DNA of 64,000 bases from Candidatus Multivorans sp. (GTDB lineage: Bacteria; Acidobacteriota; Thermoanaerobaculia; Multivoradales; Multivoraceae): contig OZ242222.1 of assembly GCA_965206765.1 (NCBI GenBank), positions 193,662-257,661 on the forward strand. Reading direction: 5' to 3'. The first letter of the stretch is position 1, and each line of letters starts with the position of its first letter. Both the position numbers and the translations under genes were made by a program. A model generated the notes under the pieces. It ran no database searches and was not told the origin of the DNA. It worked only from the letters and a program-made list of their open reading frames with translations. Below, in pieces: positions 6,658 through 31,213 of this stretch.

Positions 6658-6663
6658 GTCGAG

Positions 6664-9600
6664 TTGTGGTTGTCACGCAATGCTGTGCTAGCGTGCGTCG
6701 CCATGGCGGCGTTCACTTCTGCGGATGGCTCTCCGGTTGACGTCGGCGCCGAGGTGCGGCGCCTCCGAAGTCAGCTCGGGTTGACCCAGGAACAATTCGG
6801 GGACCGTCTAGGCGTCTCGACCATCACCGTTCATCGATGGGAGTCCGGCCAGTCGCAACCGCGGCGGCTTGCGGTTGAGAAGTTGGCGCAACTCTCCGAG
6901 CAGGCGGCGGCAGAGTCGACTCCACGACCGATGCGAGGGCTTCGACTCTCAATTGCGGCTGCCGACGGCGCGCCGCTGGACTTCGCCGGCGATCCGGAGG
7001 CCGTCCTGGCAGTGGCGGACGCTTTGCGACTGTCGTTCGGGCATCAGTTCAACCCGGCGTTCGCGATCGAGACGTCACGCATCGACCCGTTGCTGCATCA
7101 GCGCTTCGCGGTCTACGAGCGGATGCTGAAGCAGGATCCGCTGCGGTTTCTGCTCGCCGACGACGCCGGCGCCGGGAAGACGATCATGACCGGCCTGTAC
7201 GTCCGCGAAATGTTGTCGCGTGGGCGTTTGAAGCGGGTGTTGATCGTTCCGCCAGCGGGTCTCGTGGGCAACTGGCGGCGGGAACTCCAGACCCTGTTTC
7301 GGCTCGACTTCCGGATCGTCACCGGCGCCGACGTGCGGGGGAGCAACCCGTTCCGCGGCGCGGGAAGCGATCGCGTCATTGTCTCCGTGGACACGCTGGC
7401 GGGGGAGACCATGTTCGAGGCTCTTCGCCAAGCCGGTGGTCCGGCCTACGACTTGGTCGTTTTCGACGAGGCCCACAAGCTGAGCGTGCGTGAACGGGGA
7501 GTCCGGGTCGAGCGAACTCTCCGTTACAAGTTGGCCGAGGCGCTGGCTGTCAGGGCCGACTCGGGCAGTTCCTTTGGCGGGCTCGGCTGGACTGCCCGGC
7601 ATCTGCTGCTGCTTACCGCTACGCCGCACATGGGCAAGAGCGTCCCCTACGCATGGCTCTGGAGACTGCTCGATGCCGACGCCTTCGGGGCAGTGGAAGC
7701 CGTACGCCGTGCCCCCCAACTGACCCGCGACCGGCACTTCCTTCGCCGCACGAAGGAGGAAATGGTCGGCCTCGACGGCGAGCCGCTCTACCCGCAGCGC
7801 AAATGCAGCACGTTCACGTACGAGCTGAGCGGAGGGGACTGCGGCGAGCAGGATCTCTACGACCGCACGACGCAGTACCTCGATGAGCACTACGGCCGCG
7901 CTCTCGACAATCAACCGGCGCTGGAACTGGCCAAGACCGTGTTCCAGCGACGCCTTGCCAGCTCGACCTGGGCGTTGTTGCGCTCCTTCGAGCGGCGGAT
8001 CGAGAAGCTCGCGCAGACCGCGGACGCGATCGAGAGCGGCGAACTCACCGCGGAGCTGTTGCAGCGCAGGCAGGCGCTGCTGGGCAACCGCTATCGGCAC
8101 GACTATTTCGACGACACGGCCGCGGACGAGGACGTGGCGTCGGACGGCTTTGCCGAGGGAAACGAGGCCTACGAGGATGCGGTGCTCGGCGCGGTCACCG
8201 TGGTCGGCGTGGAGGAGCTGAGGCGCGAGGCCCGGCAGGTCGAGACGTTGGCGGAGCGGGCGCGCCGGCTGGTCGATTCCGGGCGGGAGACGAAGTTCGA
8301 GCGCTTGCAAGAGGTCCTGGAGAGGCCCGAGCATCAGAACGAGAAGTGGCTCATTTTCAGTGAGCACCGGGACACGGTGGACTACCTGGTGCGGCGACTT
8401 GAGGGGCTCGGATACCGGGGGCAGACAGCGCAGATCCATGGCGGCATGGACTGGAAGGAGCGCGACCGCCAGGTGGAGGCCTTTCGCCGTCCGAACGGCG
8501 CGCGCTACATGGTGGCCACCGACGCCGCGGGGGAGGGCATCAACCTGCAGTTCTGCCGCTTGATGGTCAACTACGACATTCCGTGGAACCCGGCCCGCTT
8601 GGAACAGCGGATGGGCCGGATCCATCGCTACGGCCAGCAGTTCGAGGTCCGAATCGTGAACCTGGTAGCGGGCAGCACGCGCGAGGGACGGGTGCTGCAG
8701 GTGCTTCTGGAGAAGCTCGAGGAGATTCGTGCTGAACTGGCCTCCGACAAGGTGTTCGATGTCATCGGCCGCCTGTTCGAGGGCGAGTCGCTGACCGGGT
8801 TCATGGCCAACGCCGTGACCGCGGAGGGCGAGCGGCTGGCTGTTGACCGGATCGAAGAAGCGCTCGGCACTTCCAGGGTGAAGAGAATCCGCGCGCGCGA
8901 CGCCGAGGTCTACGGCGTGCCGAAACAGAAGGTGACCGGTGAGGACCTGCGACCGGACGTGGAGCGAGAGCGTTACCTGCAGCTCCTTCCTGCACACGTT
9001 CGTCGGCTAGTGGAACGTGGGGCCCGCCTGCTCGACGTCGAGATTCGCGGCGACCTGGACGACCGGTTCGCACTCGAGCCGGGCCGTCCCGGCGCGCTCG
9101 ACCCCTTGCTGTTGGCGCTGGAAGCCTATCCGCCCGAGGCGCGCGACTGGTTGACTGTTCGCCGGCCTCGGGAAGACGACACCGGCATCTGGCTCCATCC
9201 CGGCGAGCCGCTGTTCGACGCTCTGTGCACGCATATCCGGTCTCGCTATGGCAGGGACGCGCAGCGCGGCGCCATCTTCGTCGATCCGAGGGCCGGGGAG
9301 CCCTACCTACTTCATCTCGCCGAGTTGCGGGTGGAGCGGAAGGACGTCCCTGGGAACGCCGTCGCCTCCGTCCCTGGGAACGCGGGCGTCTCGCCCGCAT
9401 CCGGCCCGGAAGGGTCGCCCCAGACCGGTTCGGCGGTACTTCCGGTTGCCGACCGGCGCGTTCTGGAACGCCGGCTGGTGGCGTTGCAGCAACGAGAGGG
9501 CGCCCAGCCGGTTCAGTGCCCCGTTGAGCAACTGCTGTCGCTTTCCGGCACCGGTCTGGCGCCTGGCATGGCGCCGCTGGCGCCGCGCGCCCCTGTGCTG

Positions 9601-10476
9601 CGGGCGCAGGCCGGCGCCCACCTGAACAACGTCCTCCAGGATCTGGTTGCCGACCTCCGCGCCAGACGCGAGGCCGAGTCGCCGGACCTCCGGCGGCGCG
9701 TTGCCGTGGGCTTCGATCTGCGCGCGGCCGAGTTGGCCTCTCGGCGCGGGAAGCTCGCGCGGAAGAGGGTCGGCCCAGGCGAGGCCGACGGCGATGAACT
9801 CAAGGCAGTGAAGCACGAGCAGAGGCGACTGTCCTGCGACCGCGAACTCGCACTGCGGCGGATCGATGAGGAGGCACGGGGCATCGTTCCCGGCGGCTCC
9901 CGGTTCCTGCTTCACGCGCTTGTCGTTCGCCCGGAGGATGTGGCCGGGCTGGAGACCATCGAGCGGTTCGACGAGGCCGTGGAGGAGATCGCAGTCCGCA
10001 TCGCCGCCGATTGGGAGCGTCAACACGGCGCCCAGGTCCAGGACGTGTCAAAGCCTGTGCTCGCCCGCGCGGCGGGTCTGCCCGACTGGCCCGGCTTCGA
10101 CCTTCTGGCGACGCTGCCGGGCGGCGGCCAGCGCTGCATCGAAGTGAAGGGCCGCTCGGCCCGCTCCGCGGTTCCGGTCGAGAACAACGAATGGGCCCAG
10201 GCATGCAAGCTGGGCGACCGGTACTGGCTCTACGCCGTCCTCGACTGCGCCACGCCGGCGCCCGAACTGCTCCGGGTCCGGAACCCGTTCGAGAAGCTGC
10301 TGGCGCACCAGCGGGTCAAGACCGTGTTCGATGTGCCGGTGGGATCGTTGATCGAAGCTGCGGAGGCCGAAGAACCGAAGCTGGAACCCGCGCGGCGCGA
10401 CTCCGCGCCGGGCGCGAACCAGTCCGAGCGTCCGTCAGCGGGCGCACGGATGGCAGGTCGGGGGGGACCAACATGA
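6664..10476 (+). CDS. XRE-family HTH fused to an SNF2/DEXH-box helicase with a C-terminal DUF3883 (restriction-endonuclease-like) domain. This is the helicase component of the DUF499/DUF1156 restriction-modification-like module.
   Basis: HTH: LGLTQEQFGDRLGVSTITVHRWESG. Motif I: DDAGAGKT. Motif II: FDEAHKL. HelicC: GEGINLQ...RIHRYGQ. DUF3883: CIEVKGRSA...NNEWAQA...YWLYAV. TTG start at 6664, with an alternative ATG at 6703. Confidence 0.85.
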   Translation: MWLSRNAVLACVAMAAFTSADGSPVDVGAEVRRLRSQLGLTQEQFGDRLGVSTITVHRWESGQSQPRRLAVEKLAQLSEQAAAESTPRPMRGLRLSIAAADGAPLDFAGDPEAVLAVADALRLSFGHQFNPAFAIETSRIDPLLHQRFAVYERMLKQDPLRFLLADDAGAGKTIMTGLYVREMLSRGRLKRVLIVPPAGLVGNWRRELQTLFRLDFRIVTGADVRGSNPFRGAGSDRVIVSVDTLAGETMFEALRQAGGPAYDLVVFDEAHKLSVRERGVRVERTLRYKLAEALAVRADSGSSFGGLGWTARHLLLLTATPHMGKSVPYAWLWRLLDADAFGAVEAVRRAPQLTRDRHFLRRTKEEMVGLDGEPLYPQRKCSTFTYELSGGDCGEQDLYDRTTQYLDEHYGRALDNQPALELAKTVFQRRLASSTWALLRSFERRIEKLAQTADAIESGELTAELLQRRQALLGNRYRHDYFDDTAADEDVASDGFAEGNEAYEDAVLGAVTVVGVEELRREARQVETLAERARRLVDSGRETKFERLQEVLERPEHQNEKWLIFSEHRDTVDYLVRRLEGLGYRGQTAQIHGGMDWKERDRQVEAFRRPNGARYMVATDAAGEGINLQFCRLMVNYDIPWNPARLEQRMGRIHRYGQQFEVRIVNLVAGSTREGRVLQVLLEKLEEIRAELASDKVFDVIGRLFEGESLTGFMANAVTAEGERLAVDRIEEALGTSRVKRIRARDAEVYGVPKQKVTGEDLRPDVERERYLQLLPAHVRRLVERGARLLDVEIRGDLDDRFALEPGRPGALDPLLLALEAYPPEARDWLTVRRPREDDTGIWLHPGEPLFDALCTHIRSRYGRDAQRGAIFVDPRAGEPYLLHLAELRVERKDVPGNAVASVPGNAGVSPASGPEGSPQTGSAVLPVADRRVLERRLVALQQREGAQPVQCPVEQLLSLSGTGLAPGMAPLAPRAPVLRAQAGAHLNNVLQDLVADLRARREAESPDLRRRVAVGFDLRAAELASRRGKLARKRVGPGEADGDELKAVKHEQRRLSCDRELALRRIDEEARGIVPGGSRFLLHALVVRPEDVAGLETIERFDEAVEEIAVRIAADWERQHGAQVQDVSKPVLARAAGLPDWPGFDLLATLPGGGQRCIEVKGRSARSAVPVENNEWAQACKLGDRYWLYAVLDCATPAPELLRVRNPFEKLLAHQRVKTVFDVPVGSLIEAAEAEEPKLEPARRDSAPGANQSERPSAGARMAGRGGPT

Positions 10477-14611: not shown

Positions 14612-14614
14612 TAG
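13496..14614 (+). CDS. IS630-family DDE transposase.
   Basis: HTH N-terminus, then LCVDEKSQIQAL...DNYQTHKH...FHFIPTSSPWLNLVERWL. Possible alternative start at 13532. Confidence 0.85.
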   Translation: MTVSVKFVSIPFMWEPAERIDIEESDRALLKKWVEAPTTTQRTVRRSRIVLAAAEGMANRAIAAKLGVSRPTVLLWRRRFAEDGPSGLTRDRPRGCGKPPLSESVVRKVIEATLHEKPPGQTHWSVRSMARAQGISPAAVQRIWAAHGLKPHLVKTFKLSNDPRFVEKLRDVVGLYRNPPENALVLCVDEKSQIQALDRTQPGLPLKRGRAGTMTHDYKRNGTTTLFAALNVLEGTVIAECMGRQRHQEFLRFLKRLDREIPNHLDLHLILDNYQTHKHAAVRAWLERKPRFHFHFIPTSSPWLNLVERWLGGLTTKAIRRGAFQSVNDLVKTIYDYVENSNQNSRPFVWTATADSIIAKVTRGKAMLETVH

Positions 14615-16562: not shown

Positions 16563-17030
16563 TCAACCAACGGTAGCGCGGGCGCTGCTCGATTCCGGCG
16601 CTGCTCGATCCCCGACGACCAGGCGGCGACCGAGGGTGCGGAGAACAGTCGCGATGTAGTCGAGCCGTGAGGGCCGGTCAAGGTCGAGAAGCCGACGGAC
16701 CTTGGCCTCGCGAACACCCAGAGACCGGGCGAGCGAGCGGGCCGAGACGCCTTTGCGGCGCATTGCGGTGTAGAGAGCCAGTTGCGCCGCCGTCCGTGGG
16801 GGCACGGTGATCAGGTGATGTTCTGCAGAGGCGGGACTTGGGCGAGGGATGTCCTCCTCAGCGTCGACGTACATGCTGAGGGCAACGAGGAGGGCGTCCT
16901 CGGCGAGCGACAGGGATTCCTCCCGCGTAACGCCCGCGGTGAGCGCCTCGGGCAGGTCCGGGAAAGTGACGAGGTAGCACGAGGCGTCGCCGTTGTCGTG
17001 TGTGAGCAGGCAGGGATAGGCGTAGTCCAT
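16563..17030 (-). CDS. hicB: HicB-family antitoxin (RNase-H-like N-terminal domain plus C-terminal DNA-binding region).
   Basis: CYLVTFPDLPEALTAGVTREESLSLAEDALLVAL matches the HicB/UPF0150 N-terminal signature. Lies directly downstream of the hicA-like ORF. Confidence 0.6.
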   Translation of the reverse strand: MDYAYPCLLTHDNGDASCYLVTFPDLPEALTAGVTREESLSLAEDALLVALSMYVDAEEDIPRPSPASAEHHLITVPPRTAAQLALYTAMRRKGVSARSLARSLGVREAKVRRLLDLDRPSRLDYIATVLRTLGRRLVVGDRAAPESSSARATVG

Positions 17031-17265: not shown

Positions 17266-17404
17266 GGCGGCCAGCCGGGCTACGATTGGCCGCCATGCAT
17301 CCCCGTTGCTCAGCTTCGCGTGGCCGCCAACGATCCCCTGTGTCGCACCGGCGAGGCCGTCGTACTTGATAGATCATCGCCCTCCGAGCGGTAGCGTTGG
17401 CCCA

Positions 17405-20400
17405 GTGAACCCCGACACCCGGCTGATCGAGGCGGCGTTTCCCTTGCGCCAGACGTCGCTGGACTCGGTTCACGAGAAGAACGTCCGGCACGGTCACATC
17501 TCGACGCTTCACATCTGGCCGGCTCGGCGGCCGTTGGCGGCCTGCCGGGCGGCGCTCCTGGCGACGCTCCTGCCTGATCCTGGCGACGCGGAGGGGCGGC
17601 GGCGGTTGATGGCACGGATCGCCGGCGAGGTGCGCCAGCGGCAGACGCCGGCGGGCAAGCTGAAGGACGAGACGGCGGGCGGCGTCCTGCACTGGGGGCG
17701 CGAGAGCTCGCCTGAACTCGAGAAGCTGCGGCACGAGGTCAGGGAGGCGTTCGGGGGGCGGGCGCCACGGGTGCTGGACCCGTTCGCGGGCGGCGGCGCC
17801 ATCCCGCTGGAGGCGATGCGGCTGGGCTGTGACGTCACGGCGTCTGACCTCAACCCGGTGGCCTGGTTCGTGCTGCGCTGCACGCTGCACTACCCGCGGC
17901 TGCTTGCGGGGCAGGAACTGCCGCTGCCGGACTTCGCGGTCCGCGACCGGAGCTTCGTTGAGGCGTTCCTCAAGGCGCAGGGGGTGACGAAGAAGGTCGC
18001 GTTGCGCGAGAGGTTGCGCGAGTTGGGGCATTCGGACGGCGAGCCGGTGCAACTGCGGTCGGCGTTGCTCGACCGTGCTGTGGATTCCACCCGGATCGGG
18101 GAGCGAACAGCGGCGGCGCGGGATAGCGATCCGTCCCTGGGAACGCGGGCGTTCCGCCCGCATCCGGCGCGAGACGGCGCCGGACCCGCCCTGCCTGCCG
18201 ACTTCCCTTGGCATCTACGAGCTTGGGGTCGCCGGGTTCTGGCCGAGGCACGGCGCGAACTGGCGCGGCGCTATCCGACCTACGCGGAGTTCGAGCCCGT
18301 GCGGCGGAAGGGCCGTGGCAGGCGGAATGCCGAGGTCTCGTTCCCTGAGAGGCGCTTCCGGCCGCGGTCGCCGGAACTGCTTGAACCGGACGATGAGGGC
18401 AACGTGTCGGTGGCGGCCGTGAACGCCGAGTTCGATTCGGTCCACCTGGAGAACGAGGCGAACCCGCGCTGGGTAGCGAAGCCGACGGTTGCCTACCTAT
18501 GGGCGCGCACGGTCCGTTGCGCGAACTGCCGGGCGGAGCTGCCGCTGCTGAAGACGCGTTGGCTGTGCAAGAAGCCCGGCAAGCGGATCCTGCTTCAGGT
18601 GACGCCGCGGAAAGACGGTTCGGGCGTGGACTTCGCGCTGGAGCACGGCGTGCCGGAAGGCGAGGGGAACGCGGCCAGGCGGCGCGAGCACGACCGCCGG
18701 CTGGGCGCCGCAACGATGAGCCGCAGCGGGGCCAAGTGCCCTTGCTGTTCTGCCATCGCGACGATGGCCGACCTCCGCAACGAGGGGCGCGCGGGGCGGC
18801 TCGGCGAGAGGATGACGGCGGTTGTTGTGGGCGGTCAGCAGGGCAAGGAGTACCGACTGCCGACCGAGGCGGAGATCGCAGTGGCGGCGGTTGGGGAGGA
18901 AGAGCTGCGTTGCCTCTATGCGGAACTCCCGTTCGGCTTGCCGGAGGAGCCGACCCCCAGCGAGAAGGCGCTCGGGATGCGTGTGCCGCGCTACGGCTTC
19001 GATACATGGCGCAAGTTGTTCACGAACCGGCAGTTGCTGGCTCTGGGGATGTTCGTGCGGTCGATTCGAAGCGCTCCAGCCGGGATGAACGACTATCCGG
19101 AGGAGTGGCGCGAGGCCTTGTCGGTGTGCCTCGCCCCTTCGATCAGTCGATTGACGGATCGCTGCAGCACTCTGGCAACCTGGACGAACGATCACGACAA
19201 GATCCGGAGTACGTTCGCTCGCTTTGCGCTACCGATGGTTTGGGACTTCGCTGAGTCATGTCCCCTTGCCGACACGACTGGCGGCTTTGTCCAGGCGGCG
19301 GAGTGGGTCGCACGGGTGTGCGAACACCTTCAGCGGGCTGCTAAGGACGCCCCGTTGCCCGAGGTCGCTCAGAAGTCCGCGACGCGATCGTGGGGCTCCG
19401 GAGCCTTCGACGTCATCTGCACCGATCCGCCCTACTACGACGCCATTCCCTACTCGGACCTGATGGACTTCTTCTTCGTTTGGCTGCGCCGGACTCTGTA
19501 CGGCGTTTCGGCAGCCGGCGATGACGCCTTCGCCGGGCCTCTCGGCCCCAAGTGGAATGCGGCAGCGTCGAGCGGCCAGGGCGATGGCGAGCTGATCGAC
19601 GACGCCTCCCGCTTCGGCGGCGACCGCCGCGCGTCCAAGCAGAACTACGAGGACGGCATGGCGCGAGCCTTCGGACGTTTCCACGACGCGCTGCGTGATG
19701 ACGGGCGGTTGGTCATCGTCTTCGCGAACAAGCAGCCCGACGCCTGGGAGACCTTGGTTTCTGCCCTGATCCGGGCTGGTTTCGTCGTTTGTGGCTCGTG
19801 GCCGATCCACACGGAACGGCTAAACCGGCAGCGTTCCCTGGCGTCGGCGGCGTTGTCGTCGTCCATCTGGTTGGTTTGCCGCCGCCGCCCGGCGGCTGCA
19901 CGACCGGGCTGGGATGGCGGAGTGCTGGCCGAGATGCGCTCCAACATCACCGATCGCCTGCGACAGTTCTGGGACGCGGGCATTCGGGGCCCGGACTTCG
20001 TATGGGCGGCGACCGGTCCGGCGCTTGAGGCCTTCAGCCGCCATCCTGTCGTCAAGAAGGCCGACGCCCAGGGTGAACTGCTGTCGGTCGCCGAGTTTCT
20101 GCGCCAGGTGCGAAGAATGGTGGTGGGCTTTGCCGTCAGTCGCCTGCTCGCGAACGGGTCGGACGAATCACGAGCGGCGGTGGAACTCGACGACTTGACG
20201 ACCTACTACCTTCTGCACCGCCACGACTACGGGCTGGACGCGGCGCCTGCCGGCGCATGCATTCTCTACGCCGTCTCCTGCAACCTGTCGGACGCCGAAC
20301 TCGCTGGCGGCCTGGATCTGCTGGCGCGCGGCGGCGCCTCCACGACCGCGGTCTCGGACGAAGATGGGGACGAGGACGGGCCAGAGACCGCCGGTTCGGC

Positions 20401-20722
20401 TTCCGAGGCCCGGCTAAAGCCCTGGAACCGCCGCCGCAGCCGCAATCTGGGCCAGCCGGCGGCGGACGGCGCGCCGCCGCCCCTGATCGACTGCGTCCAT
20501 CGGCTGATGCAACTCTGGAAGACCGGCGAGCAGACGCGCGTGGATCGCTACCTGGCCGACCGCGGGCTATGGCGCCACGAACTGTTCGCCCGCGTCGTTC
20601 AGGCGGTCATCGAACTCGCCGGCGAGGGCGCCGAAGAGCGGTCCATCCTGGAGTCGATCCAGAACCACCTGCAGGGCCGCGGCGCCGCCGCGCCCGCTCC
20701 GCGGCAGCGGAGCATGTTGTAG
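17405..20722 (+). CDS. DUF1156 (COG1743) N6-adenine DNA methyltransferase with Zn-ribbon, about 1100 aa. This is the methylase component of the DUF499/DUF1156/helicase module.
   Basis: N-terminus RLIEAAFPL...EKNVRHGHISTLHIWPARRPLAACRA is typical of DUF1156. Motif I: LDPFAGGGAIPLEA. Motif IV: DPPY in FDVICTDPPYYDAIPYSD. Zn-ribbon: CANC...CPCC. Probable GTG start at 17405 (the tool ORF starts at TTG 17306). Confidence 0.85.
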   Translation: MNPDTRLIEAAFPLRQTSLDSVHEKNVRHGHISTLHIWPARRPLAACRAALLATLLPDPGDAEGRRRLMARIAGEVRQRQTPAGKLKDETAGGVLHWGRESSPELEKLRHEVREAFGGRAPRVLDPFAGGGAIPLEAMRLGCDVTASDLNPVAWFVLRCTLHYPRLLAGQELPLPDFAVRDRSFVEAFLKAQGVTKKVALRERLRELGHSDGEPVQLRSALLDRAVDSTRIGERTAAARDSDPSLGTRAFRPHPARDGAGPALPADFPWHLRAWGRRVLAEARRELARRYPTYAEFEPVRRKGRGRRNAEVSFPERRFRPRSPELLEPDDEGNVSVAAVNAEFDSVHLENEANPRWVAKPTVAYLWARTVRCANCRAELPLLKTRWLCKKPGKRILLQVTPRKDGSGVDFALEHGVPEGEGNAARRREHDRRLGAATMSRSGAKCPCCSAIATMADLRNEGRAGRLGERMTAVVVGGQQGKEYRLPTEAEIAVAAVGEEELRCLYAELPFGLPEEPTPSEKALGMRVPRYGFDTWRKLFTNRQLLALGMFVRSIRSAPAGMNDYPEEWREALSVCLAPSISRLTDRCSTLATWTNDHDKIRSTFARFALPMVWDFAESCPLADTTGGFVQAAEWVARVCEHLQRAAKDAPLPEVAQKSATRSWGSGAFDVICTDPPYYDAIPYSDLMDFFFVWLRRTLYGVSAAGDDAFAGPLGPKWNAAASSGQGDGELIDDASRFGGDRRASKQNYEDGMARAFGRFHDALRDDGRLVIVFANKQPDAWETLVSALIRAGFVVCGSWPIHTERLNRQRSLASAALSSSIWLVCRRRPAAARPGWDGGVLAEMRSNITDRLRQFWDAGIRGPDFVWAATGPALEAFSRHPVVKKADAQGELLSVAEFLRQVRRMVVGFAVSRLLANGSDESRAAVELDDLTTYYLLHRHDYGLDAAPAGACILYAVSCNLSDAELAGGLDLLARGGASTTAVSDEDGDEDGPETAGSASEARLKPWNRRRSRNLGQPAADGAPPPLIDCVHRLMQLWKTGEQTRVDRYLADRGLWRHELFARVVQAVIELAGEGAEERSILESIQNHLQGRGAAAPAPRQRSML

Positions 20723-20731
20723 GTTCGCTCG

Positions 20732-21130
20732 ATGCTCACTTCGCTCCGTCTGCGGAACTTCAAGAACTTCGCGGACGAGACGCTGCGCATGGGGCCGTTC
20801 ACCGTGCTGGTGGGCGCCAACGCGAGCGGCAAGAGCAACGTCCGCGACGCGCTCCGCTTTCTGCACGGAATCGGCCGCGGATATCGCCTCGCCGATACAA
20901 TCGGCGGCCGGTACGGCGCCGCCGGACAGGCGGGGTGGGCACCGATTCGGGGCGGGGTCGACGAGATTGTCCGTTTCGGAGAGGACCAGTTCACTCTCAC
21001 GGTCGAGACCGGGCTGCCCGGGATCTTCTTTAACCGATACGGGATCGTGGTTGGTGAGGGCAGTAAGGAAGCCGCCGCATTCCGTGTGGAAGACGAGTAT
21101 CTGCGTTCTCGGACGTTCAAGTCGACCGCG
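20732..21130 (+). pseudogene. N-terminal remnant (about 130 aa) of an AAA_21/ABC-like ATPase. Has Walker A but no Walker B or signature motif.
   Basis: LRLRNFKNFADETLRMGPFTVLVGANASGKSNVRDALRFL is a typical AAA_21 N-terminus. The similarity is lost after about residue 135 and the ORF decays into low-complexity sequence. Confidence 0.55.
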
Positions 21131-21167
21131 TCCATTTCCGCATCGAGGAGACGATGTGCCCGATCTC

Positions 21168-22226
21168 GTGAAACCGAAAGTCGGCGTCAGGCTTCTTGTC
21201 GGAGCGTGGCTGGTCGCGGCGGCCGCGGCCGCCCAGACCGACCCGGCACCGCCCAACTTCCACGACGTCCACTTCCACCTGGCGAACTACGTTCAGCGCG
21301 GCATCACCCTGAACGACTTCCTGGAGATCACAGGCGACCGGGTCGGTCGCGCGGCGGTGTTTGGCATCCCCCTGCAACAGAAGTGGGACTACTTCGAGTC
21401 GGGTGATAGGGCGCCGGACTACTACCTGCACTCGGACGCGGCGCTCTACTACTACTCCTTTGTCGACGCGATCATCGCTGAGCAGTACCAGTCGCTCTCA
21501 CCGGCGGAGCAGGAACGCTTCGATCCGATGATCACGGGCTTCAACCCGACCGACATGTACGCCGCGGACCACATTCGACGGGTGCTGGAGATGTACCCGG
21601 GCGTCTTCTCGGGGATCGGCGAGTTCTCCATCCACAAGGAGTTCGTGACGTCGAAGATCCTCGGTCACGGCGCCAGTCTGCGGAACCCGGCACTGGACCG
21701 TGTGCTCGAGTTCGCGGGCGAAGTGGGCCTGGCGGTCATCCTCCACAACGACATCGACACCGTGCTGCCTACGGGAGCGAACGAGCCGGTCCACCTGGAG
21801 CTGCTCCGCGAGATCTTCCGCTCCCACCCTGATGTCACGATCATCTGGGCGCACACCGGCCTCGGCCGTTTCGTCGGGCCGGCGCCGGACCATGTTCAGT
21901 TGCTCGACGGCCTGCTGTCGGACGAGGCGTATGCACACGTCCACTGCGACCTTTCGTGGGACGAGGTAGCGAAGTACATCGTGCGGGACGAAGCCTCGCT
22001 CGCCGCCTGGGCGGCGCTTCTGGAGCGTCATCCCGGCCGGTTCCTGTTCGGCACCGACTCCGTGGCCCCGGCGAGCCGCGAGCGGTATCTCAAGACTTGG
22101 CGTGACTACAAGCCCCTCTGGGAGCGCCTGAGCGAGGAGACACGTCACGCGATCACTCTCGGTAACTACGAGCGCATCTTCGACACCGCGAACCGCGAGG
22201 TGCGGGCTTGGGAAGCCCGGCGGTAG
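21168..22226 (+). CDS. Secreted amidohydrolase-2 family (TIM-barrel metal-dependent hydrolase) protein.
   Basis: GTG start gives signal peptide MKPKVGVRLLVGAWLVAAAAAAQ. HFH metal-binding motif and PF04909-like pattern follow (HxH...H...D). Confidence 0.6.
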   Translation: MKPKVGVRLLVGAWLVAAAAAAQTDPAPPNFHDVHFHLANYVQRGITLNDFLEITGDRVGRAAVFGIPLQQKWDYFESGDRAPDYYLHSDAALYYYSFVDAIIAEQYQSLSPAEQERFDPMITGFNPTDMYAADHIRRVLEMYPGVFSGIGEFSIHKEFVTSKILGHGASLRNPALDRVLEFAGEVGLAVILHNDIDTVLPTGANEPVHLELLREIFRSHPDVTIIWAHTGLGRFVGPAPDHVQLLDGLLSDEAYAHVHCDLSWDEVAKYIVRDEASLAAWAALLERHPGRFLFGTDSVAPASRERYLKTWRDYKPLWERLSEETRHAITLGNYERIFDTANREVRAWEARR

Positions 22227-22297
22227 GGCACGTAAACAGCGTCGCGGCGGCGTCGGAGAGATCGGGGGATCACCAGTGGACACTTACCCGGTGCTGG

Positions 22298-22330
22298 CCA
22301 CCTGTACACCCTCCCGTAAGTCCACCTGTA
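22298..22330. promoter_or_regulatory. Direct repeat CCACCTGTA twice (22298-22306 and 22322-22330) in a lower-GC intergenic region upstream of the AAA_21 ATPase gene.
   Basis: Read directly. The spacing is 24 bp start-to-start. This is a candidate regulator binding site or promoter element. Confidence 0.25.
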
Positions 22331-22340
22331 AGCTGTCGCG

Positions 22341-23615
22341 ATGATCCGCCGAATCCAGGCGCTCAACTACCGCTGCCTGCGGTCGATCGACATTGAGCTC
22401 GACCGATTTCATGTCCTCGTTGGGCCGAACGGCTCCGGTAAGAGCACGCTGCTCGACGTCGTCGGCTTCCTGGGCGACATGGTGTCCGAGGGCCTGCAGG
22501 CAGCCGTCGACGCACGGACCAGGAACTTCCAGGATCTGGTTTGGGGGCGGCCCAGGAACGGACTCGGCTTCGAACTGGCGGTGGAGTTCGATCTGCCCCA
22601 GGACGTGAAGAGCAAGCTTCCCAAGGAGAAAGGATTCGAGCTGTTTCGCTACGAAATCAAGATCAAGGAGGACGACCGGACCGGGGTACGAATCGAGTCA
22701 GAGAGAGGGCTTCTCCTTTCCCGCGTGGAGGAGGCGGCTCCTCTGCAAGGCGTCCTCCGGTTCCCCGACCCGCCGGAGGCCCCTGCAACGATTCTTCTTG
22801 GTGGCCGGCGACGCGGAGCCAGAACCATACTCAGCAAGTCCAGTGCAGGACGAGACAATTTCAACATCGAAGTGTCTGAAGAGTCGGGCAAGGGATGGGC
22901 AATAAGCATCTCGTTCGGCCCAGGACGATCGACCCTGCGAAACCTGCCGGAGTCCCCAGAGAAGTTCCCCGCTTCGACCTACGTCAAGCGTCTGCTTGAG
23001 ACGGGAACCCACAGACTGTTCCTCGATAGTGAACGAATGCGTCAGTCCAGTCCTCCTGGACGCCAGATCGAAGCCATTTCGTACGACGGCTCCAACCTCC
23101 CCCGCGTCATTAGGAGGCTTCGGGAAGAGTGCGGAGAGAAGTTCGAACAATGGCTGAGCCATGTTCGCGCGTCCCTGCCAGCGGTTCGGGACATTCGCGT
23201 TGAAGAGCGCGATGAGGACCGGCACTGTTATCTCGTGATTTGCTACGAGACGGGAGTAGAGGTTCCCTCATGGATGGTCTCGGACGGGACCCTGCGCCTG
23301 CTGGCTTTGACCTTGCCTGCGTATCTGGTTGACGTAAACAAGATCTACGTGATCGAGGAACCCGAGGACGGATTGCATCCAGGGGTCATGCAGGATGTGT
23401 ACGACGCGCTTTCTTCCGTCTACGACTCCCAGGTGCTGCTGGCGACCCACTCCCCGATCTTCCTGAGCCACGCGGATCTCGAACACGTGCTCTGTTTCGG
23501 CATGGACCCACGTGGTGCGACGCACGTTATTCCTGCAACATGGCATCCCCGGCTCAAGGATTGGCAGGGAGATCCGGACCTGAGTGTCTACTTCGCGGCG
23601 GGAGTCCTGGGATGA
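22341..23615 (+). CDS. AAA_21/AAA_15-family ATPase (OLD/abortive-infection-type ABC ATPase without a nuclease domain).
   Basis: Walker A: LVGPNGSGKSTLLD. Walker B region: VIEEPEDGLHP. C-terminal LLATHSP motif. Confidence 0.8.
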   Translation: MIRRIQALNYRCLRSIDIELDRFHVLVGPNGSGKSTLLDVVGFLGDMVSEGLQAAVDARTRNFQDLVWGRPRNGLGFELAVEFDLPQDVKSKLPKEKGFELFRYEIKIKEDDRTGVRIESERGLLLSRVEEAAPLQGVLRFPDPPEAPATILLGGRRRGARTILSKSSAGRDNFNIEVSEESGKGWAISISFGPGRSTLRNLPESPEKFPASTYVKRLLETGTHRLFLDSERMRQSSPPGRQIEAISYDGSNLPRVIRRLREECGEKFEQWLSHVRASLPAVRDIRVEERDEDRHCYLVICYETGVEVPSWMVSDGTLRLLALTLPAYLVDVNKIYVIEEPEDGLHPGVMQDVYDALSSVYDSQVLLATHSPIFLSHADLEHVLCFGMDPRGATHVIPATWHPRLKDWQGDPDLSVYFAAGVLG

Positions 23616-24253
23616 GAGCCAGCGAGGAACCCCGCAGCCTGATCGTTCTGGCTGCGGACAAGCACATCAAGGCGTCCTTGGAGACGCTGCTTGAGCGGCG
23701 CCGGACGGACTTGGCTATTTGTGACATCACGTTCGAAGCGTATCGTCATCCACAGTCGGATCCGGGCTGCAGGACGAAAGCGGCTGAGTTTCTGCGCTCA
23801 TTCATCAGGCAGTACCGCTACGCACTCGTGGTCTTCGATTGGAACGGATGTGGCAGCACGAGCGCGGCAGAGAGCATTCAAGCCGCGGTCGAGCAGGACC
23901 TTGGCCGCAACGGCTGGATGGAGCGGTCGAAGGTGGTCGTGATCTCCCCGGAAGTTGAGGCTTGGGTGTGGAGTTCTTCCGACCACGTCGCACAGGTTCT
24001 TGGATGGGCCGGAGGGCTAGGCCGTCTTCGTTCGTGGCTCGAGGACAGAGGGCTCTGGTCGGCAGGCGACTTGAAGCCGGCTGATCCCAAGAAGGCTATG
24101 GCCCAAGCACTACGCCATCGGCGCCGAGTGCGATCGTCCGTGCTGTTCAGTGACTTGGCGGCTTCCGTCGAGTTCGACCGTTGCGAGGACCGTGCTTTCA
24201 AGGAGCTCATCGGGACGCTACGAACCTGGTTTCCGCGAAGCAAGGCGGCGTGA
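23612..24253 (+). CDS. DUF4276/RloB-like small partner of the AAA_21 ATPase. ATGA overlap with the ATPase stop and GTGA overlap with the DUF499 start.
   Basis: About 213 aa, immediately coupled to the ATPase. C-terminal EVEAWVW resembles the conserved E-x-E-A-W motif of DUF4276 partners. This assignment is by context and weak motif only. Confidence 0.45.
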   Translation: MRASEEPRSLIVLAADKHIKASLETLLERRRTDLAICDITFEAYRHPQSDPGCRTKAAEFLRSFIRQYRYALVVFDWNGCGSTSAAESIQAAVEQDLGRNGWMERSKVVVISPEVEAWVWSSSDHVAQVLGWAGGLGRLRSWLEDRGLWSAGDLKPADPKKAMAQALRHRRRVRSSVLFSDLAASVEFDRCEDRAFKELIGTLRTWFPRSKAA

Positions 24254-27200
24254 CCAGGCCACGTCCCAAACCCTGGCACGAAGTCGTCCGGCTCAAGGAC
24301 GAGCTGCGCTCGGGCGAACTGTCGCTGGCGGAGTTCGCAGCCGATCTGCATGAGGTCACGCTCAGACGGGGCAAGCGGCCGGTGTACGAGGAGCCGGAGA
24401 AGTTCTTCGCGCTGACCTATCCCACGCACGCGTTGCGGGAGCTCGTTCGTGATGTGGCGGCGCGGCTCGCGGGGCGAAGCGACAAGGCGGTGCGGCAGTT
24501 GGAGTTGACGTACGGCGGCGGCAAGACGCATACGTTGATCGCGCTCTATCACTTGTTCCGGGACCCGGATGGTCTGCCGGACGTGCCGGCGGTGAGTGAG
24601 TTTCGCCAACACGCGGGTCACCAGTTGCCGGGGGCGCACACGGCGGCGCTGTGCTTCGACAAGATCGACGTTGAACGCGGCATTGAGGGTGTGCGTTCTC
24701 CAGGTGGCGAGACCCGGACCCTGCGGCATCCGTGGAGCGTGCTCGCGTATCAACTCGGCGGCGATGACGGCCTGCGGGCGATCCACGGCGCGGGTAGTGC
24801 CGAGGAGCGTGAGACGCCCCCGGCCGAGCCCTTGCTGGTGAAGTTGCTGGAGCGCCCGCAAGAGCGCGGCCTCGGAACGCTCATCCTGGTAGACGAGGTC
24901 CTGATGTACGCGCGGGAGAAGGCCGGCCAGGACCGCGTGTGGCGGGATCGCATCATCGACTTCTTCCAGTACCTCGTGCAGGCGACAACGAAGGTCGACC
25001 GCGCGGCGCTGGTCGCATCCCTGCTCGCGACCGATCCCGCCAAGCAACAGGGCGCCGAGGGCCAGCGGCTGATCGAGGATCTGTTCGACGTGTTCCGCCG
25101 GCAGCGGGAGGAGGGCGTGCAGCCGGTCGGAAGGAAGGACGTGGCGGAAGTGCTGCGCCGGCGGTTCTTCGAGCCGGCGGCGTTGCGGGACACCGAGTCG
25201 TGGCGGTCGCAGGCGATCGGGGCGGTGCGAGAGCTGGCCGGTCTCGACGAGACGACAGCCAAGAACAGGAAGACGGAAGAGGACCGTTTCGAGGACAGCT
25301 TTCCATTTCATCCCGATCTGACCGACGTGTTCTACAGCCGGTGGACGCAGCTTCCGGGCTTTCAACGCACCCGCGGCATTCTGCGTATTCTGGCGACCGC
25401 GTTGCGTGAGGCAGAGTCCTGGGATGGGAGTCCCCTGGTGGGCCCTTCGGCGCTGCTGACGGCCCAAGGGACGGAGGGCATCTCGGAAGCCGTGCGCGAA
25501 CTGGCCGGCGTAGCGAGTTCGGAGGTCGGCGAGGGCGCGAGAACCGACTGGGTCACGCTGCTGGAGGCCGAGTTGGACAAGGCGCGGCAGATCCAGGCGG
25601 AGCTGCCGGCCCTGGCGGCCAGCCGCGAGTTGGAGCAGGCTGTGCTGGCGGTCTTCCTCTACTCTCAGCCGATCGGCCGGAAGGCCTCGACGCCGGAGTT
25701 GCTACGGATGGTCGGCGCCGGCGGTCCCGACAAGATCATGCTCCGCAAGGGGCTAGCCCGCTGGCGTGAACTGTCCTGGTTCCTGGACGACGAGGACGTC
25801 GGCGCCGATGTTCACGGCGTAGAGGGGGGCCTGCCCAAGTCCTGGCGGCTTGGCAATCGTCCCAATCTGCGCCAGATGCACGACGAGGCTTGCAAGGAGC
25901 GCGTGTCGACGCAGGCTGTCGAGGCCCGTCTCGAGGAGGCAGTTCGTCAAGCCAGAGTGCTCACGGACGGCGCCCGCGCTGCCGGCGCCGCCGTCCACAT
26001 GTTGCCGGCGTCCCCAAAGGATGTCGGCGACGATGGCGCCTTCCGCTACGTCGTGCTGGGACCGGATGCCGCCTCGGAATCCGGCAAGCCCAGCGCGCTG
26101 GCGAAGCGATATCTGGCCGAGACCACCAGCCCGGACCGCCCGCGTGTTCATCGCAATGCGGTAGTTCTGGGTGTGCCGTCGCGCGATGGCCTGGCGGCGG
26201 CCCGCGGCGGCATCCGCGCGTTGCTCGGCTGGGAGGACGTGAAAGGCCAGCTCACGGGGCAGACGGTCGATGCGATGCAGGCCGAGCGGCTCGGGCGGCA
26301 GCTTCGAGATGCGCGCGCGCGGGTTCCCGACGCCGTGCGGCAGGCGTACTGCGTGGTTGTTGCCGCGGGCACGGACGGCGACACGCAGGCGTTCAAGCTG
26401 CCGGGCGCCGCCGGGCCGCTGTTCAGCGAAATCAAGGGCGACCAGCGGTCACGGATCCGGGAGACTCCGGTCGACGCGGAAGCCCTCTTGCCGGGCGGAC
26501 CCTACGACTTGTGGCGTGAGGGTGAGCAGGCGCGATTCGTGAAGGACCTTGCCGGCGCATTCGCCCGCTATTCGCATCTCCCCAAGGTACTGAGGCCGCA
26601 GATCGTTCGTGAGACGGTGCTGCAGGGCGTGGAACGCGGTCTCCTCGTTGCCCAACTGGCGCGGCCGGACGGGAGTTGCCGAACCTGGTGGAGGGAGCCG
26701 GTGGATTCGGAATGCGTAGACGATCTTGCGCTTGAGGTGGTACTTCCGGGCGGCGCCGAGCTGAAACGTCTCGCCCCGTCCCTGCTGGAGCCGGGGAGGT
26801 TGCCAGGCCTGTGGCCGGATGGGGGCCGCGGAGTCGACCTCACAGCTCTGTTGGAGTACTTCGGCGGTGACTTCACGGTGACCGTCTCCCACGAGGGTTA
26901 CGACGACGTGGTCGAGATTCCGGGCTGCTCTCAGGCAGTCGCGGAAGAGGTCGTCTGTCAGGCCGTAGAGCAGGGCTTCGTATGGCTGCGCAACGGGCCG
27001 ACCTCGGTGTGGAAGGAGGAGGTTCCCTACGGCGCCCTCAATGAACGTGCGGTGCTGCTGCGGTCGCCCGATGAATTGACGCCCCAGGAACTGGTCGAGG
27101 AAGCGCTACCCGGGGCGTGGAGCGACGAACAGGCGACCGGCTGGGGCCTGTCGCAGGCGCTGTCGCAAGTCCGGGGGGAGCCGGTGCCGTGGGGGTTGCT

Positions 27201-27540
27201 GCGTGAGGGGATCTCCAACGCGGTGCGTAGTCGCTGGTTGGAGGTCGCCGAGGGCAGTACCTCGGCCAGTTCCGAAGACGCCGCCGCTTTGAAGATTCAA
27301 CGCCCAGCGGATGGCCAGACGCCCGAGCCATCGCCGGGTCCTCGTGTCGCCGACGCGCTGCTTGAGGCGAACGAGATCCAGGATCTTGCTGACAGGCTTC
27401 CCGATCTTCTAGGCGCCAGTGCCGGGTGCGGTTTGAAGTTTCGCGTGAGAGTGGAACTTGGCGAGGATGCACCGGCCGAAGCGCGTGACAAACTGAACGA
27501 GGTGCTCCGGGAGGTGTCGGACGATCTGAAGGCCGGGTAG
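24250..27540 (+). CDS. DUF499 (COG1483, BrxC/PglY-like) large AAA+ ATPase. This is the ATPase component of the DUF499/DUF1156/helicase module.
   Basis: GTG start gives MTRPRPKPWHEVVRLKDELRSGELSLAEFAADLHEV (typical DUF499 N-terminus). Walker A: TYGGGKTHTLIALYHL. Length about 1100 aa. Confidence 0.8.
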   Translation: MTRPRPKPWHEVVRLKDELRSGELSLAEFAADLHEVTLRRGKRPVYEEPEKFFALTYPTHALRELVRDVAARLAGRSDKAVRQLELTYGGGKTHTLIALYHLFRDPDGLPDVPAVSEFRQHAGHQLPGAHTAALCFDKIDVERGIEGVRSPGGETRTLRHPWSVLAYQLGGDDGLRAIHGAGSAEERETPPAEPLLVKLLERPQERGLGTLILVDEVLMYAREKAGQDRVWRDRIIDFFQYLVQATTKVDRAALVASLLATDPAKQQGAEGQRLIEDLFDVFRRQREEGVQPVGRKDVAEVLRRRFFEPAALRDTESWRSQAIGAVRELAGLDETTAKNRKTEEDRFEDSFPFHPDLTDVFYSRWTQLPGFQRTRGILRILATALREAESWDGSPLVGPSALLTAQGTEGISEAVRELAGVASSEVGEGARTDWVTLLEAELDKARQIQAELPALAASRELEQAVLAVFLYSQPIGRKASTPELLRMVGAGGPDKIMLRKGLARWRELSWFLDDEDVGADVHGVEGGLPKSWRLGNRPNLRQMHDEACKERVSTQAVEARLEEAVRQARVLTDGARAAGAAVHMLPASPKDVGDDGAFRYVVLGPDAASESGKPSALAKRYLAETTSPDRPRVHRNAVVLGVPSRDGLAAARGGIRALLGWEDVKGQLTGQTVDAMQAERLGRQLRDARARVPDAVRQAYCVVVAAGTDGDTQAFKLPGAAGPLFSEIKGDQRSRIRETPVDAEALLPGGPYDLWREGEQARFVKDLAGAFARYSHLPKVLRPQIVRETVLQGVERGLLVAQLARPDGSCRTWWREPVDSECVDDLALEVVLPGGAELKRLAPSLLEPGRLPGLWPDGGRGVDLTALLEYFGGDFTVTVSHEGYDDVVEIPGCSQAVAEEVVCQAVEQGFVWLRNGPTSVWKEEVPYGALNERAVLLRSPDELTPQELVEEALPGAWSDEQATGWGLSQALSQVRGEPVPWGLLREGISNAVRSRWLEVAEGSTSASSEDAAALKIQRPADGQTPEPSPGPRVADALLEANEIQDLADRLPDLLGASAGCGLKFRVRVELGEDAPAEARDKLNEVLREVSDDLKAG

Positions 27541-27551
27541 CGGCGCGCCGC
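27540..27551 (+). terminator. GC-rich palindrome GCGGCGCGCCGC right after the DUF499 stop. Weak hairpin without a U-tract.
   Basis: 12-bp self-complementary sequence at the stop codon. No T-run follows. Confidence 0.2.
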
Positions 27552-27674
27552 CTACTTCGCTCGCAGCTCCGAGAGCCGCAGCGTTTGCCGCAGGGGGACA
27601 AACCGCGAGAGTAGACGGGTCGGCGAAGCGAGACATGAGGTTCCTACCCGGGGAATGTTAAGGAGCAGACCGAG

Positions 27675-28937
27675 ATGAGTGCGAATCACGTTGCGACGGT
27701 TACGGAGACAGCCGCGTCGGCCTATGTGCCTCCCTTGCAACTCACGAAAGGGCAGCCGCCGCCCGTTGCTGCGAACGGTGGCCTGTCCTACATGTCGTTC
27801 GATCAGGACGGGGATGCGGGAACTGCTGCGGCGACGGAGGCGGCCTTCACGCAGGTTGCCGAGGGGCACGGGAAGGCGTTTGCGGACATGCTCGATAACG
27901 CTTCTCCCGGACCTGTCGAAACCAGGTGGGGTCTCGGGTTTCGGCGCTACGCAGAGTGCCTCGAGTACATTCAGGCGAACAACATCGAAGCCCCTGAAGG
28001 CGGCCTGGCGCTGCCGCTGCGCTACTCGGTCCGCGAGGAGCCTTCCTACTCCATCGTCTCGTCCAATGCACTCTGGCGGGACCCGGCGCGACAAGCCGAC
28101 GCAGAAGCGTTGCGCCGGTACGAACGGGACATAGCGCGGGGATGCCTGTACTTTCCGCAGGTGATGCGCGACGCGCGACGAATCAAGGAGTACTACCCGG
28201 GTCTAGAGCCTGACAGCGCCGAGTGCATGGACAAGCTTGGCCTCTCGCTGGCGCACTGTGAGTCCAGGTGCGGGAACTTCTACGACGCGGCGGAGGTGGA
28301 GCGCGTGTTCTACCCGGAGATGGAGAAGCTCCTCCTGGAGTTCTTCCCGGACGCGACGGATGCGTTTGTGTACAACCACGACGTATTCGACAAGGACTAC
28401 CAGGGAGACCGGACCGAGGACCAGGACAACAAGAACCCGGGTGTGAACGCCAACTACGCCAACCTTGTCCACAACGACTTGAACGACAACAGCGGCCGTG
28501 TACGCTGCCGCGAGCTGCTCACCAGGAACCTGCGGAACTTCGGGCGCGAGCAGCACTACACCGAAGAACAGGCGGGCGCGAAGATGTCGGGGCGCTTCAT
28601 GTCGATCAACCTCGCCAAACCAATGGAGACCGTGCGCCAGAATCCTTTCGTGCTCTGCGCCTGGCCTTCTTTCGCCGACCAGCCGTACATCACCAACTAC
28701 CGCATCTACGATGACCGCGTCGGTGAGACCACGCGCTTCACGTACCGCCCGCACCACGAGTGGTACTGGTTTCCCCAGCAGACGCCCACCGAGGTCTCGA
28801 TGCTCAAGTGCTACGACTCGGTCACCGACGGCTCCGTCTCGCGCTGGTCTTTCCACTCTGCCTGCATTGACCCGACCGCGCCCGACGATGCTCCCTGCCG
28901 GAGGAACGTCGTGGTCCGCTCCTACGTCTTCTTCTAG
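27675..28937 (+). CDS. CmcJ/AsaB (NvfI)-like hydroxylase/oxygenase family protein.
   Basis: Central segment NANYANLVHNDLN...RCRELL...RFMSINLAKP...NPFVLCAWPSF follows the HRVHvD...Rf-IINvWRPi...PLAlcD pattern of the CmcJ family. AAGGAG RBS before the ATG. Confidence 0.45.
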   Translation: MSANHVATVTETAASAYVPPLQLTKGQPPPVAANGGLSYMSFDQDGDAGTAAATEAAFTQVAEGHGKAFADMLDNASPGPVETRWGLGFRRYAECLEYIQANNIEAPEGGLALPLRYSVREEPSYSIVSSNALWRDPARQADAEALRRYERDIARGCLYFPQVMRDARRIKEYYPGLEPDSAECMDKLGLSLAHCESRCGNFYDAAEVERVFYPEMEKLLLEFFPDATDAFVYNHDVFDKDYQGDRTEDQDNKNPGVNANYANLVHNDLNDNSGRVRCRELLTRNLRNFGREQHYTEEQAGAKMSGRFMSINLAKPMETVRQNPFVLCAWPSFADQPYITNYRIYDDRVGETTRFTYRPHHEWYWFPQQTPTEVSMLKCYDSVTDGSVSRWSFHSACIDPTAPDDAPCRRNVVVRSYVFF

Positions 28938-31156: not shown

Positions 31157-31213
31157 CGACTCGGCACTCGCGATCCTACGCATGGCCGAGGCCAGACAGG
31201 TGGGCTTGGCGCC

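Follow-up and report, generated by a model that had tools for sequence, protein, structure and literature searches.

Hma is a methylation-based anti-phage system that often holds additional genes: embedded genes are present in 63% of Hma systems, and the embedded family seen most often pairs an ABC ATPase with a TOPRIM, NERD, or PIN protein and bears the names HEC-01 to HEC-03 (Payne et al. 2024, bioRxiv 10.1101/2024.01.29.577857). HEC-01 (Hma-embedded candidate 01; PADLOC-DB v2), an ABC ATPase followed by a small Toprim-like partner, lies between hma genes and is also found outside Hma. The MAD3/MAD4 pair of the eight-gene methylation-associated defense system MADS is a known module of this type, and the combination of an ABC ATPase with a Toprim domain recurs in OLD, Gabija GajA, and PARIS AriA/AriB. 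Here we describe such a pair in a stretch of 64,000 nucleotides (contig OZ242222.1 of assembly GCA_965206765.1; the whole stretch is called the window below). The window belongs to a Candidatus Multivorans-like acidobacterium and carries a predicted Hma-type system made up of an HmaA helicase, an HmaB DUF1156 methylase, and an HmaC DUF499-type ATPase. The gap between HmaB and HmaC contains a gene stump and three genes. It is quite probable that this whole arrangement is best explained as an autonomous MAD3/MAD4 cassette lodged in an Hma slot, together with the dead stump of a PDC-M07A gene and a resident amidohydrolase gene that has become enclosed. What is shown here is which genes these are, where the cassette begins and ends, that the amidohydrolase is resident, and what the stump derives from; the related loci used for comparison are numbered with an L.

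A complete MAD3/MAD4 pair upstream of HmaC

The pair is the known two-gene anti-phage module MAD3/MAD4 (HEC-01), here inside Hma, and the locus adds another example of it. The ATPase passes the curated NCBIfam model NF047739 (MAD3) with 453.6 bits against a cutoff of 420, its residues 1 to 423 aligning with model positions 1 to 427 of 427, and the 213-aa partner passes NF047734 (MAD4) with 215.7 bits against a cutoff of 160 (residues 8 to 208 on positions 1 to 206 of 206). Because both curated NCBI equivalog cutoffs are passed at full length, the identity of the pair is settled. In PADLOC, the ATPase is best matched by HEC-01A (E = 1.3e-44) and then by mad3 (E = 6e-37). The partner departs from HEC-01 in this respect, since it fits HEC-01B only weakly (E = 5e-4) and mad4 better (E = 9e-9). 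A further difference from HEC-01 is that the cassette is not alone in its slot, where a resident metabolic gene and what is left of a second pair are also found.

Read from its translation, the ATPase is complete, with a Walker A motif (GPNGSGKS), a signature-like SDGT, a Walker B motif (IYVIEEPEDGLHP), and an H-loop (ATHSP). Its stop overlaps the start of the partner on the same strand (ATGA, 23612 to 23615), and the stop of the partner overlaps the GTG start of HmaC (GTGA, 24250 to 24253). The original prediction, made from the sequence alone, had described exactly this series, a complete AAA_21 ATPase coupled by ATGA to a small partner that is coupled by GTGA to a DUF499-type ATPase, and direct reading of the sequence found these and all of its other features where it had placed them. 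Its designation of the first gene as an ATPase was correct, whereas the AAA class was not, as the family is ABC-type according to Payne et al. 2024 (10.1101/2024.01.29.577857). Judging from sequence comparison, the gene features of the block rest on strong homology, and chance patterns are excluded.

The partner had been likened to DUF4276, and this did not bear out: the Pfam models for DUF4276, DUF4435, and Toprim give no match to it at E <= 10, and it passes the curated MAD4 model instead. Within the partner family, weak matches to DUF4276 (PF14103) are seen in 6 of 45 members (best E = 1.4e-4), and one member matches RloB. The 213-aa protein thus appears to be a distant relative only of DUF4276. 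Members of the family are ~213 aa in length and strongly resemble one another, with D76, E114, and E116 invariant and D16 nearly so. A profile search of the family against PDB sequences found nothing. However, the AlphaFold2 model of the partner (pLDDT 91.7) has as its best PDB fold match the Toprim-containing C-terminal region of Xanthomonas OLD (6NJV; probability 0.99, E = 4.9e-3, TM = 0.46), and a phage RloB-like protein also matches it (TM = 0.48). The model therefore points to a Toprim-like fold of the DUF4276/RloB/OLD C-terminal class. This agrees with the description of HEC-01B as TOPRIM-like (10.1101/2024.01.29.577857) and with published work in which Mad4 is a DUF4276 homologue and DUF4276 and RloB are assigned to the Toprim superfamily.

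Two features weigh against the assignment of the fold. The structural matches are themselves weak (E of about 5e-3), and the partner is without the canonical Toprim Glu and DxD, with an Asp following strand 1 and only one Asp following strand 3. What the pair has in common with OLD, Gabija, and PARIS is the association of an ABC ATPase with Toprim, and the best solved structure for the partner is from OLD. It is unlike them in consisting of two proteins with a much smaller partner, a noncanonical acidic motif, and no Pfam match of the partner to DUF4435 or OLD-like_TOPRIM; the AriA, GajA, and Old models score far more weakly on the ATPase than does HEC-01A or MAD3. The resemblance to OLD/PARIS/RloAB-type pairs that had been proposed from the sequence thus stands as an ATPase with a small Toprim-like partner, and the pair behaves as an embedded cassette.

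The pair is an exchangeable cassette

The pair is a discrete, exchangeable two-gene cassette that is mostly standalone in other genomes. Loci L010 and L011 retain HmaB, the amidohydrolase gene, and HmaC and lack the pair, and the extra DNA of the window relative to them corresponds exactly to the cassette extent in Table 1; at their junction, the TGA of the amidohydrolase gene overlaps the ATG of HmaC. Between the window and the pair-bearing relatives, dS is 1.2 to 2.0 for the pair and 0.22 to 0.56 for HmaB and HmaC, a difference of three to five times. Because the pair dS is so far above that of the flanking genes, the alleles of the pair are older than their flanks, indicating replacement of the cassette. 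In the same comparisons, the dN/dS of the pair is 0.09 to 0.14, which shows that both genes are functional and under purifying selection. A repeat search around the cassette gave no convincing target-duplication repeats.

The pair also stands alone in L005 and L006. Among 80 metagenome loci with relatives of the partner (tblastn), the ATPase lies directly upstream in 61 of 61; HmaC is downstream in none of the 52 loci with room on that side, and HmaB is upstream in none of 32. The absence of the pair from L010 and L011, the excess of dS, and the standalone loci together favor an autonomous module lodged in the Hma slot. On the model of OLD, Gabija, and PARIS, and in line with the genetics of MADS, the ATPase would sense infection or foreign DNA and would use ATP to license the Toprim partner for the cutting of nucleic acid, so that MAD3/MAD4 may be an accessory or second-line effector beside Hma. 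The nuclease activity, its trigger, and any functional link of the pair to Hma are put forward here by that analogy.

Several observations weigh against an autonomous, accessory role. The context count by tblastn could overlook very divergent HmaB or HmaC genes. HEC-01 tested alone in Escherichia coli gave no protection (10.1101/2024.01.29.577857). The MADS system of Pseudomonas aeruginosa does protect, with mad3 and mad4 each needed, and a mad5 deletion is possible only in combination with loss of mad2 or mad3 (Maestri et al., 10.1101/2023.03.30.534895). These genetics, and the tight overlap of start and stop with HmaC, would fit an integrated role better. MAD3/MAD4 could then be the effector of the whole system, as in MADS, with HmaB marking self, HmaA and HmaC recognizing unmethylated DNA, and the pair cleaving it under the DUF499 ATPase. 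The run of overlaps from ATPase to partner to HmaC suggests co-translation in fixed ratios, and both proteins exceed the MAD3 and MAD4 thresholds. Deletion of mad3 or mad4 lowers the defense of P. aeruginosa, whereas a mad3 deletion strain could supply methylated plasmid, so methylation persists without mad3 (10.1101/2023.03.30.534895). The tolerance of mad5 loss only alongside loss of mad2 or mad3, and the failure of HEC-01 by itself, point in the same direction.

We regard this integrated role as possible but doubtful. HmaB and HmaC are intact in L010 and L011, which have no ATPase/Toprim pair, relatives of the pair are standalone at every metagenome locus with room downstream and in L005 and L006, and the dS excess means that the alleles have been swapped independently of Hma. 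The pair resembles its MADS counterpart in lying downstream of a methyltransferase and directly upstream of the next large gene, here HmaC. However, the remaining system does not appear to be the MADS of P. aeruginosa: 16 window proteins (a subset of the open reading frames [ORFs]) were scanned against NCBIfam, and no MADS model was reached except by MAD3 and MAD4, while PADLOC mad2 matched HmaB weakly. The authors of the MADS study made MAD6, MAD7, and MAD8 mandatory in their detection model and class MAD3 and MAD4 as accessory (10.1101/2023.03.30.534895). We therefore continue to favor an autonomous MAD3/MAD4 module.

A second ATPase pair is being lost from the slot after HmaB

The HmaB ORF ends with a TAG at 20720 to 20722 and is followed by a spacer of 9 nt (20723 to 20731) and an ATG at 20732. 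The ORF that begins there (20732 to 21406, 224 aa) encodes only the N-terminal strand and Walker A motif (GANASGKS) of an ABC-type ATPase; it has no Walker B motif, signature motif, or H-loop, and Pfam matches cover model positions 1 to 50 only of SMC_N, AAA_21, and AAA_15. Homology to full-length relatives ends at residues ~125 to 133 (nucleotides ~21103 to 21130), and the remainder of the ORF is an out-of-frame read-through that overlaps the amidohydrolase gene. The original prediction had noted the 9-nt spacer, the Walker-A-only fragment, and its decay near ~135 aa and had taken the fragment for the remnant of an older ATPase gene, all of which agrees with our results. The older gene is of the PDC-M07A type, a PADLOC multigene defense candidate: residues 1 to 132 of the stump match model positions 1 to 123 of 412, well short of the full length of ~410 to 445 aa. 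Full-length proteins of this type share ~130 aa with the stump at 55 to 65% identity, and one of them, P0262, is 55% identical to it across 132 aa. An origin from either of the other ATPases in the window (22341 and 31891) had been raised as well and was rejected, as the similarity is confined to the Walker A region (44 aa at 34% identity in one case and 61 aa at 39% in the other).

In L012 and L018, an intact copy of this gene (A2, 433 to 449 aa) follows the same 9-nt spacer and is overlapped by the gene for a partner of ~190 aa (P2). The L012 A2 matches PDC-M07A at E = 2e-66, and P2 departs from PDC-M07 in matching no PADLOC, Pfam, or NCBIfam model; an hhalign comparison of the second partner of L001 with the MAD4-family alignment was not significant. 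The closest relative of the window, L090 (92% nucleotide identity from the amidohydrolase gene to HmaC), has an intact A2 of 432 aa behind the same 9-nt spacer and a P2 that reads as frameshifted, on a contig with 3x coverage. Given these full-length orthologues in L012, L018, and L090, the window copy is a truncated pseudogene. Elsewhere, a frameshift and an internal deletion are present in L001, L017 has an insertion in P2, 72 codons of A2 are left in L010, and none are left in L011. In L004, a 473-aa protein (L004 5419 to 6840) occupies the slot instead; it has only a weak match to OLD-like TOPRIM (E = 1.8e-4), no ATPase domain, and no other assignment. These patterns indicate that a second pair, a PDC-M07A ATPase and its ~190-aa partner, once stood directly behind HmaB and that several lineages are losing it independently.

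Relative to L001 and L090, the window lacks 1.3 to 1.8 kb, from codon ~134 of A2 to ~15 to 30 nt before the start of the amidohydrolase gene. At the right edge of this deletion (Table 1), sequence common to all island-bearing relatives resumes; the rest of A2, all of P2, and the second copy of a repeat have been lost. The acquisition of the present cassette had been proposed as the cause of the truncation. This proved incorrect, because L012 and L090 hold A2, the amidohydrolase gene, and MAD3/MAD4 together, which makes the truncation a later deletion.

Truncated N-terminal pieces of PDC-M07A-type ATPases (e.g., L002 10001 to 10591 and L003 152 to 742) abound in public data, some of them on megabase contigs, and one adjoins an N6_Mtase/Eco57I and HATPase_c system. 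Their frequency suggests that the subfamily is inactivated unusually often.

Repeats of the HmaB terminus bound the slot

The repeat in question consists of the end of HmaB and the spacer that follows it, and it recurs ~45 to 60 nt upstream of the amidohydrolase gene in L001, L017, L012, and L004. Its core (TGTTGTAGGTTCGCCCGA) is exact in the right-hand copies, and ~26 of 34 nt are common overall. The core positions are L001 11665 to 11682, L012 9941 to 9958, L017 9941 to 9958, L090 6822 to 6839, and L004 7116 to 7133 and 7482 to 7499. The copy in L090 is similar, that in L010 is degenerate, and L004 has a third copy, after the gene for the 473-aa protein. Direct repeats of the HmaB terminus thus bound the A2/P2 slot in relatives, whereas the window holds the left copy only, because its deletion removed the right one. 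No comparable repeats flank the MAD3/MAD4 cassette.

Such repeats might mean that the interval after HmaB is a genuine cassette-exchange site, where circular cassettes enter and leave at an att-like sequence and where either this process or the surrounding turnover locked the resident gene in place in at least eight loci. We think this reading unlikely. The published work on embedding in Hma discusses no mechanism, and, if the repeats prove general, they would offer a testable mechanism for cassette exchange and embedding.

The enclosed amidohydrolase gene is a resident of the chromosome

Between the stump and the pair lies an amidohydrolase gene that had been described as signal peptide-bearing and treated as cargo. 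The first part of that description is consistent with inspection of its N terminus, which is Sec-signal-like (a K/R-rich stretch, then LLVGAWLVAAAAAA, then AAA|Q), so that the enzyme is probably periplasmic. The cargo status is refuted by 20 island-free relatives (Candidatus Multivorans and other Thermoanaerobaculia), in which an ammonium transporter gene is followed by the amidohydrolase gene; in 17 of the 20, a CmcJ-like oxidoreductase gene comes next, and after it genes for PhoD/cytochrome c, carbonic anhydrase (in most), and UPF0261. Because it occupies the same chromosomal position there, the amidohydrolase gene is a resident and not defense cargo. It starts with a GTG at 21156, with GGAG 6 nt upstream, its dN/dS of 0.13 to 0.18 indicates continuing purifying selection, and its family is very large and well conserved (at least 8,000 scored homologues).

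In the island-free locus L007, the amidohydrolase stop overlaps the oxidoreductase start in an ATGA coupling. Compared with L007 by blastn, the window has three extra blocks, namely, 6635 to ~21155 (HmaA to the remnant), 22217 to 27659 (the pair and HmaC), and 31157 to 33160 (a further ATPase pair, on the opposite strand). The ancestral last 15 nt of the amidohydrolase gene, with a ribosome-binding site, persist at 27660 to 27674, before the oxidoreductase start. On this comparison, Hma genes now flank the resident gene on both sides, with the amidohydrolase itself outside the defense system. In L018, a divergent Hma (68 to 69% amino acid identity) lies wholly upstream of the amidohydrolase gene; the site is thus a hotspot at which the enclosed arrangement is not obligatory. 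Upstream of the amidohydrolase gene, homology between island-bearing and island-free loci was limited to ~20 nt around the ribosome-binding site and was found only with L019. Two negative results speak against this history of the locus: the slot was found to hold none of the scars of HmaA, HmaB, or HmaC that an origin by duplication and loss would predict, and no genomes intermediate toward an Hma that encloses the amidohydrolase were found among the relatives compared.

Recruitment of the amidohydrolase into defense, as an effector or as an anchor that guards the island against deletion, would account for the fact that each of the eight island-bearing loci keeps it between HmaB and HmaC while its surroundings turn over heavily, for the overlap of its stop with the HmaC start in L010 and L011, and for some comparisons in which its alleles diverge as deeply as those of the pair (dS of 0.65 to 0.74 versus 0.12 for the downstream resident gene). 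However, we consider such a role very unlikely. The gene holds the same position, coupled to the CmcJ-like oxidoreductase, in island-free relatives and lies outside the divergent Hma of L018. Moreover, its secretion signal-like N terminus would be odd for a component of DNA defense, its huge family is housekeeping-like, and it has no PADLOC match. A resident gene, enclosed by the island, remains our reading of it.

The stump raises a similar question. In a word-indexed search, its best 120 matches were all short (92 to 240 aa), some of them on megabase contigs, whereas an exhaustive search returned many full-length relatives (403 to 467 aa) with the same N terminus, two of which match PDC-M07A at E of ~1e-62. 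A family of short Walker-A proteins was dropped as a candidate on these grounds and because L090, the closest relative, has the gene intact. Also very unlikely is a maintained small Walker-A-only protein, such as a regulator or decoy, since, although the short matches, the stump dN/dS of 0.11 to 0.25 (rather than 1) against L001 and L010, and the conserved spacer after HmaB would suit it, the short proteins stop at scattered positions with the unrelated tails typical of frameshifts, the lesions differ among loci (codon ~133 in the window, ~72 in L010, a frameshift in L001, and absence in L011), the low dN/dS fits recent independent inactivation, and the fragment lacks the other motifs of an ATPase.

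Hma core genes and other features of the window

HmaA, HmaB, and HmaC all lie on the plus strand, in agreement with the PADLOC definition of Hma as three genes on one strand. The window lies outside the search rule of Payne et al., which allows at most three embedded genes between neighboring hma genes. HmaB scores below the threshold of NCBIfam DUF1156_antiphage, and HmaC scores below that of DUF499_antiphage; Pfam's own DUF499 model gives no match to HmaC at E <= 10. A scan of positions 20500 to 27800 for promoters and terminators returned a count no higher than that in shuffled sequence. The coordinates of the features are collected in Table 1.

Table 1. Features of the Hma locus, with their positions in the window
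Feature	Position	Strand	Basis
HmaA: HTH, SNF2/DEAD helicase, NOV_C	6658..10476	+	PADLOC HmaA E 1.5e-157; Pfam Helicase_C, ResIII, HTH_31, NOV_C
HmaB: DUF1156 N6-adenine methyltransferase	17306..20722	+	PADLOC HmaB E 9e-112; Pfam DUF1156 E 4e-17; start codon approximate
Repeat: last ~8 HmaB codons, stop, and 9-nt spacer; core TGTTGTAGGTTCGCTCGA at 20715-20732	20699..20732	.	Fuzzy search, alignment across loci
Remnant A2 of PDC-M07A-type ABC ATPase, first ~133 codons	20732..21130	+	PADLOC PDC-M07A E 5.8e-23
Right edge of A2 deletion	21126..21142	.	blastn vs L001, L004, L010, L012, L090; junction sequences
Resident amidohydrolase (Amidohydro_2)	21156..22226	+	Pfam E 1.5e-13, above cutoff; position in island-free relatives
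MAD3/MAD4 cassette extent by presence/absence	22214..24250	.	blastn, window vs L010, L011; junction sequences
MAD3 / HEC-01A-type ABC ATPase, 424 aa	22341..23615	+	NCBIfam antiphage_MADS3; PADLOC HEC-01A, mad3; Pfam AAA_21 E 4e-27
MAD4 / HEC-01B-type small partner, 213 aa, Toprim-like (predicted)	23612..24253	+	NCBIfam antiphage_MADS4; PADLOC mad4
HmaC: DUF499-type ATPase	24250..27540	+	PADLOC HmaC E 9e-75, DUF499 E 7e-17
Resident chromosome resumes	27660..28937	+	blastn vs L007; junction sequences
CmcJ/NvfI-family oxidoreductase ("YDMC")	27675..28937	+	NCBIfam NF041278 131.8 bits, cutoff 80; Pfam "YDMC" in precomputed tables

The gap between HmaA and HmaB is 6.8 kb long; among its genes are those for an RNA ligase, two transposases, and a HicB-like protein. 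The ATP-dependent RNA ligase (10766 to 12124) exceeds the cutoff of TIGR02306 (DRB0094 family), and its position is kept in L004, L011, L012, and L090; it may be one more embedded gene, perhaps with a role in RNA repair. The transposase genes (13496 to 14614, DDE_3 with HTH, and 14774 to 15973, DDE_Tnp_1 with DUF4372) are missing from L004, L011, and L012 and are therefore recent IS insertions in the lineage of the window. A HicB-like antitoxin gene lies directly upstream of HmaB on the minus strand (16563 to 17030). It has no PADLOC or NCBIfam match and owes its name to synteny, as Pfam HicB families are listed at this position for L001, L004, and L090.

A sequence of ~40 nt with a perfect 7-bp hairpin (GCGGGCG..CGCCCGC) occurs at 9367 to 9408 and 18130 to 18171, inside the coding regions of HmaA and HmaB, where it is read in different frames. 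The sequence resembles a small palindromic repeat element that has entered both genes. Beyond the point where the resident chromosome resumes, a third ATPase/partner module lies on the minus strand (31214 to 33429), in which a PDC-M38A/AbiLi-like ATPase gene (31891 to 33429) is ATGA-coupled to a gene for a PDC-M38B protein (31214 to 31894; E = 2e-41). Its block of ~2 kb is missing from all relatives compared, in which the carbonic anhydrase and UPF0261 genes are adjacent.

Implications for embedding in Hma

The locus is a further case of MAD3/MAD4 (HEC-01) in Hma, from an acidobacterial lineage known mostly through metagenome-assembled genomes, and the pair by itself adds little to what has been described. 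Its value lies in the natural history of embedding that it records. One slot holds two different ATPase/Toprim modules. One of the two undergoes independent decay in several lineages; the other varies in presence, with boundaries exact to the base pair, and its alleles are much older than its flanks. Caught between them is a resident metabolic gene. A gene that lies between defense genes is thus not automatically defense cargo.

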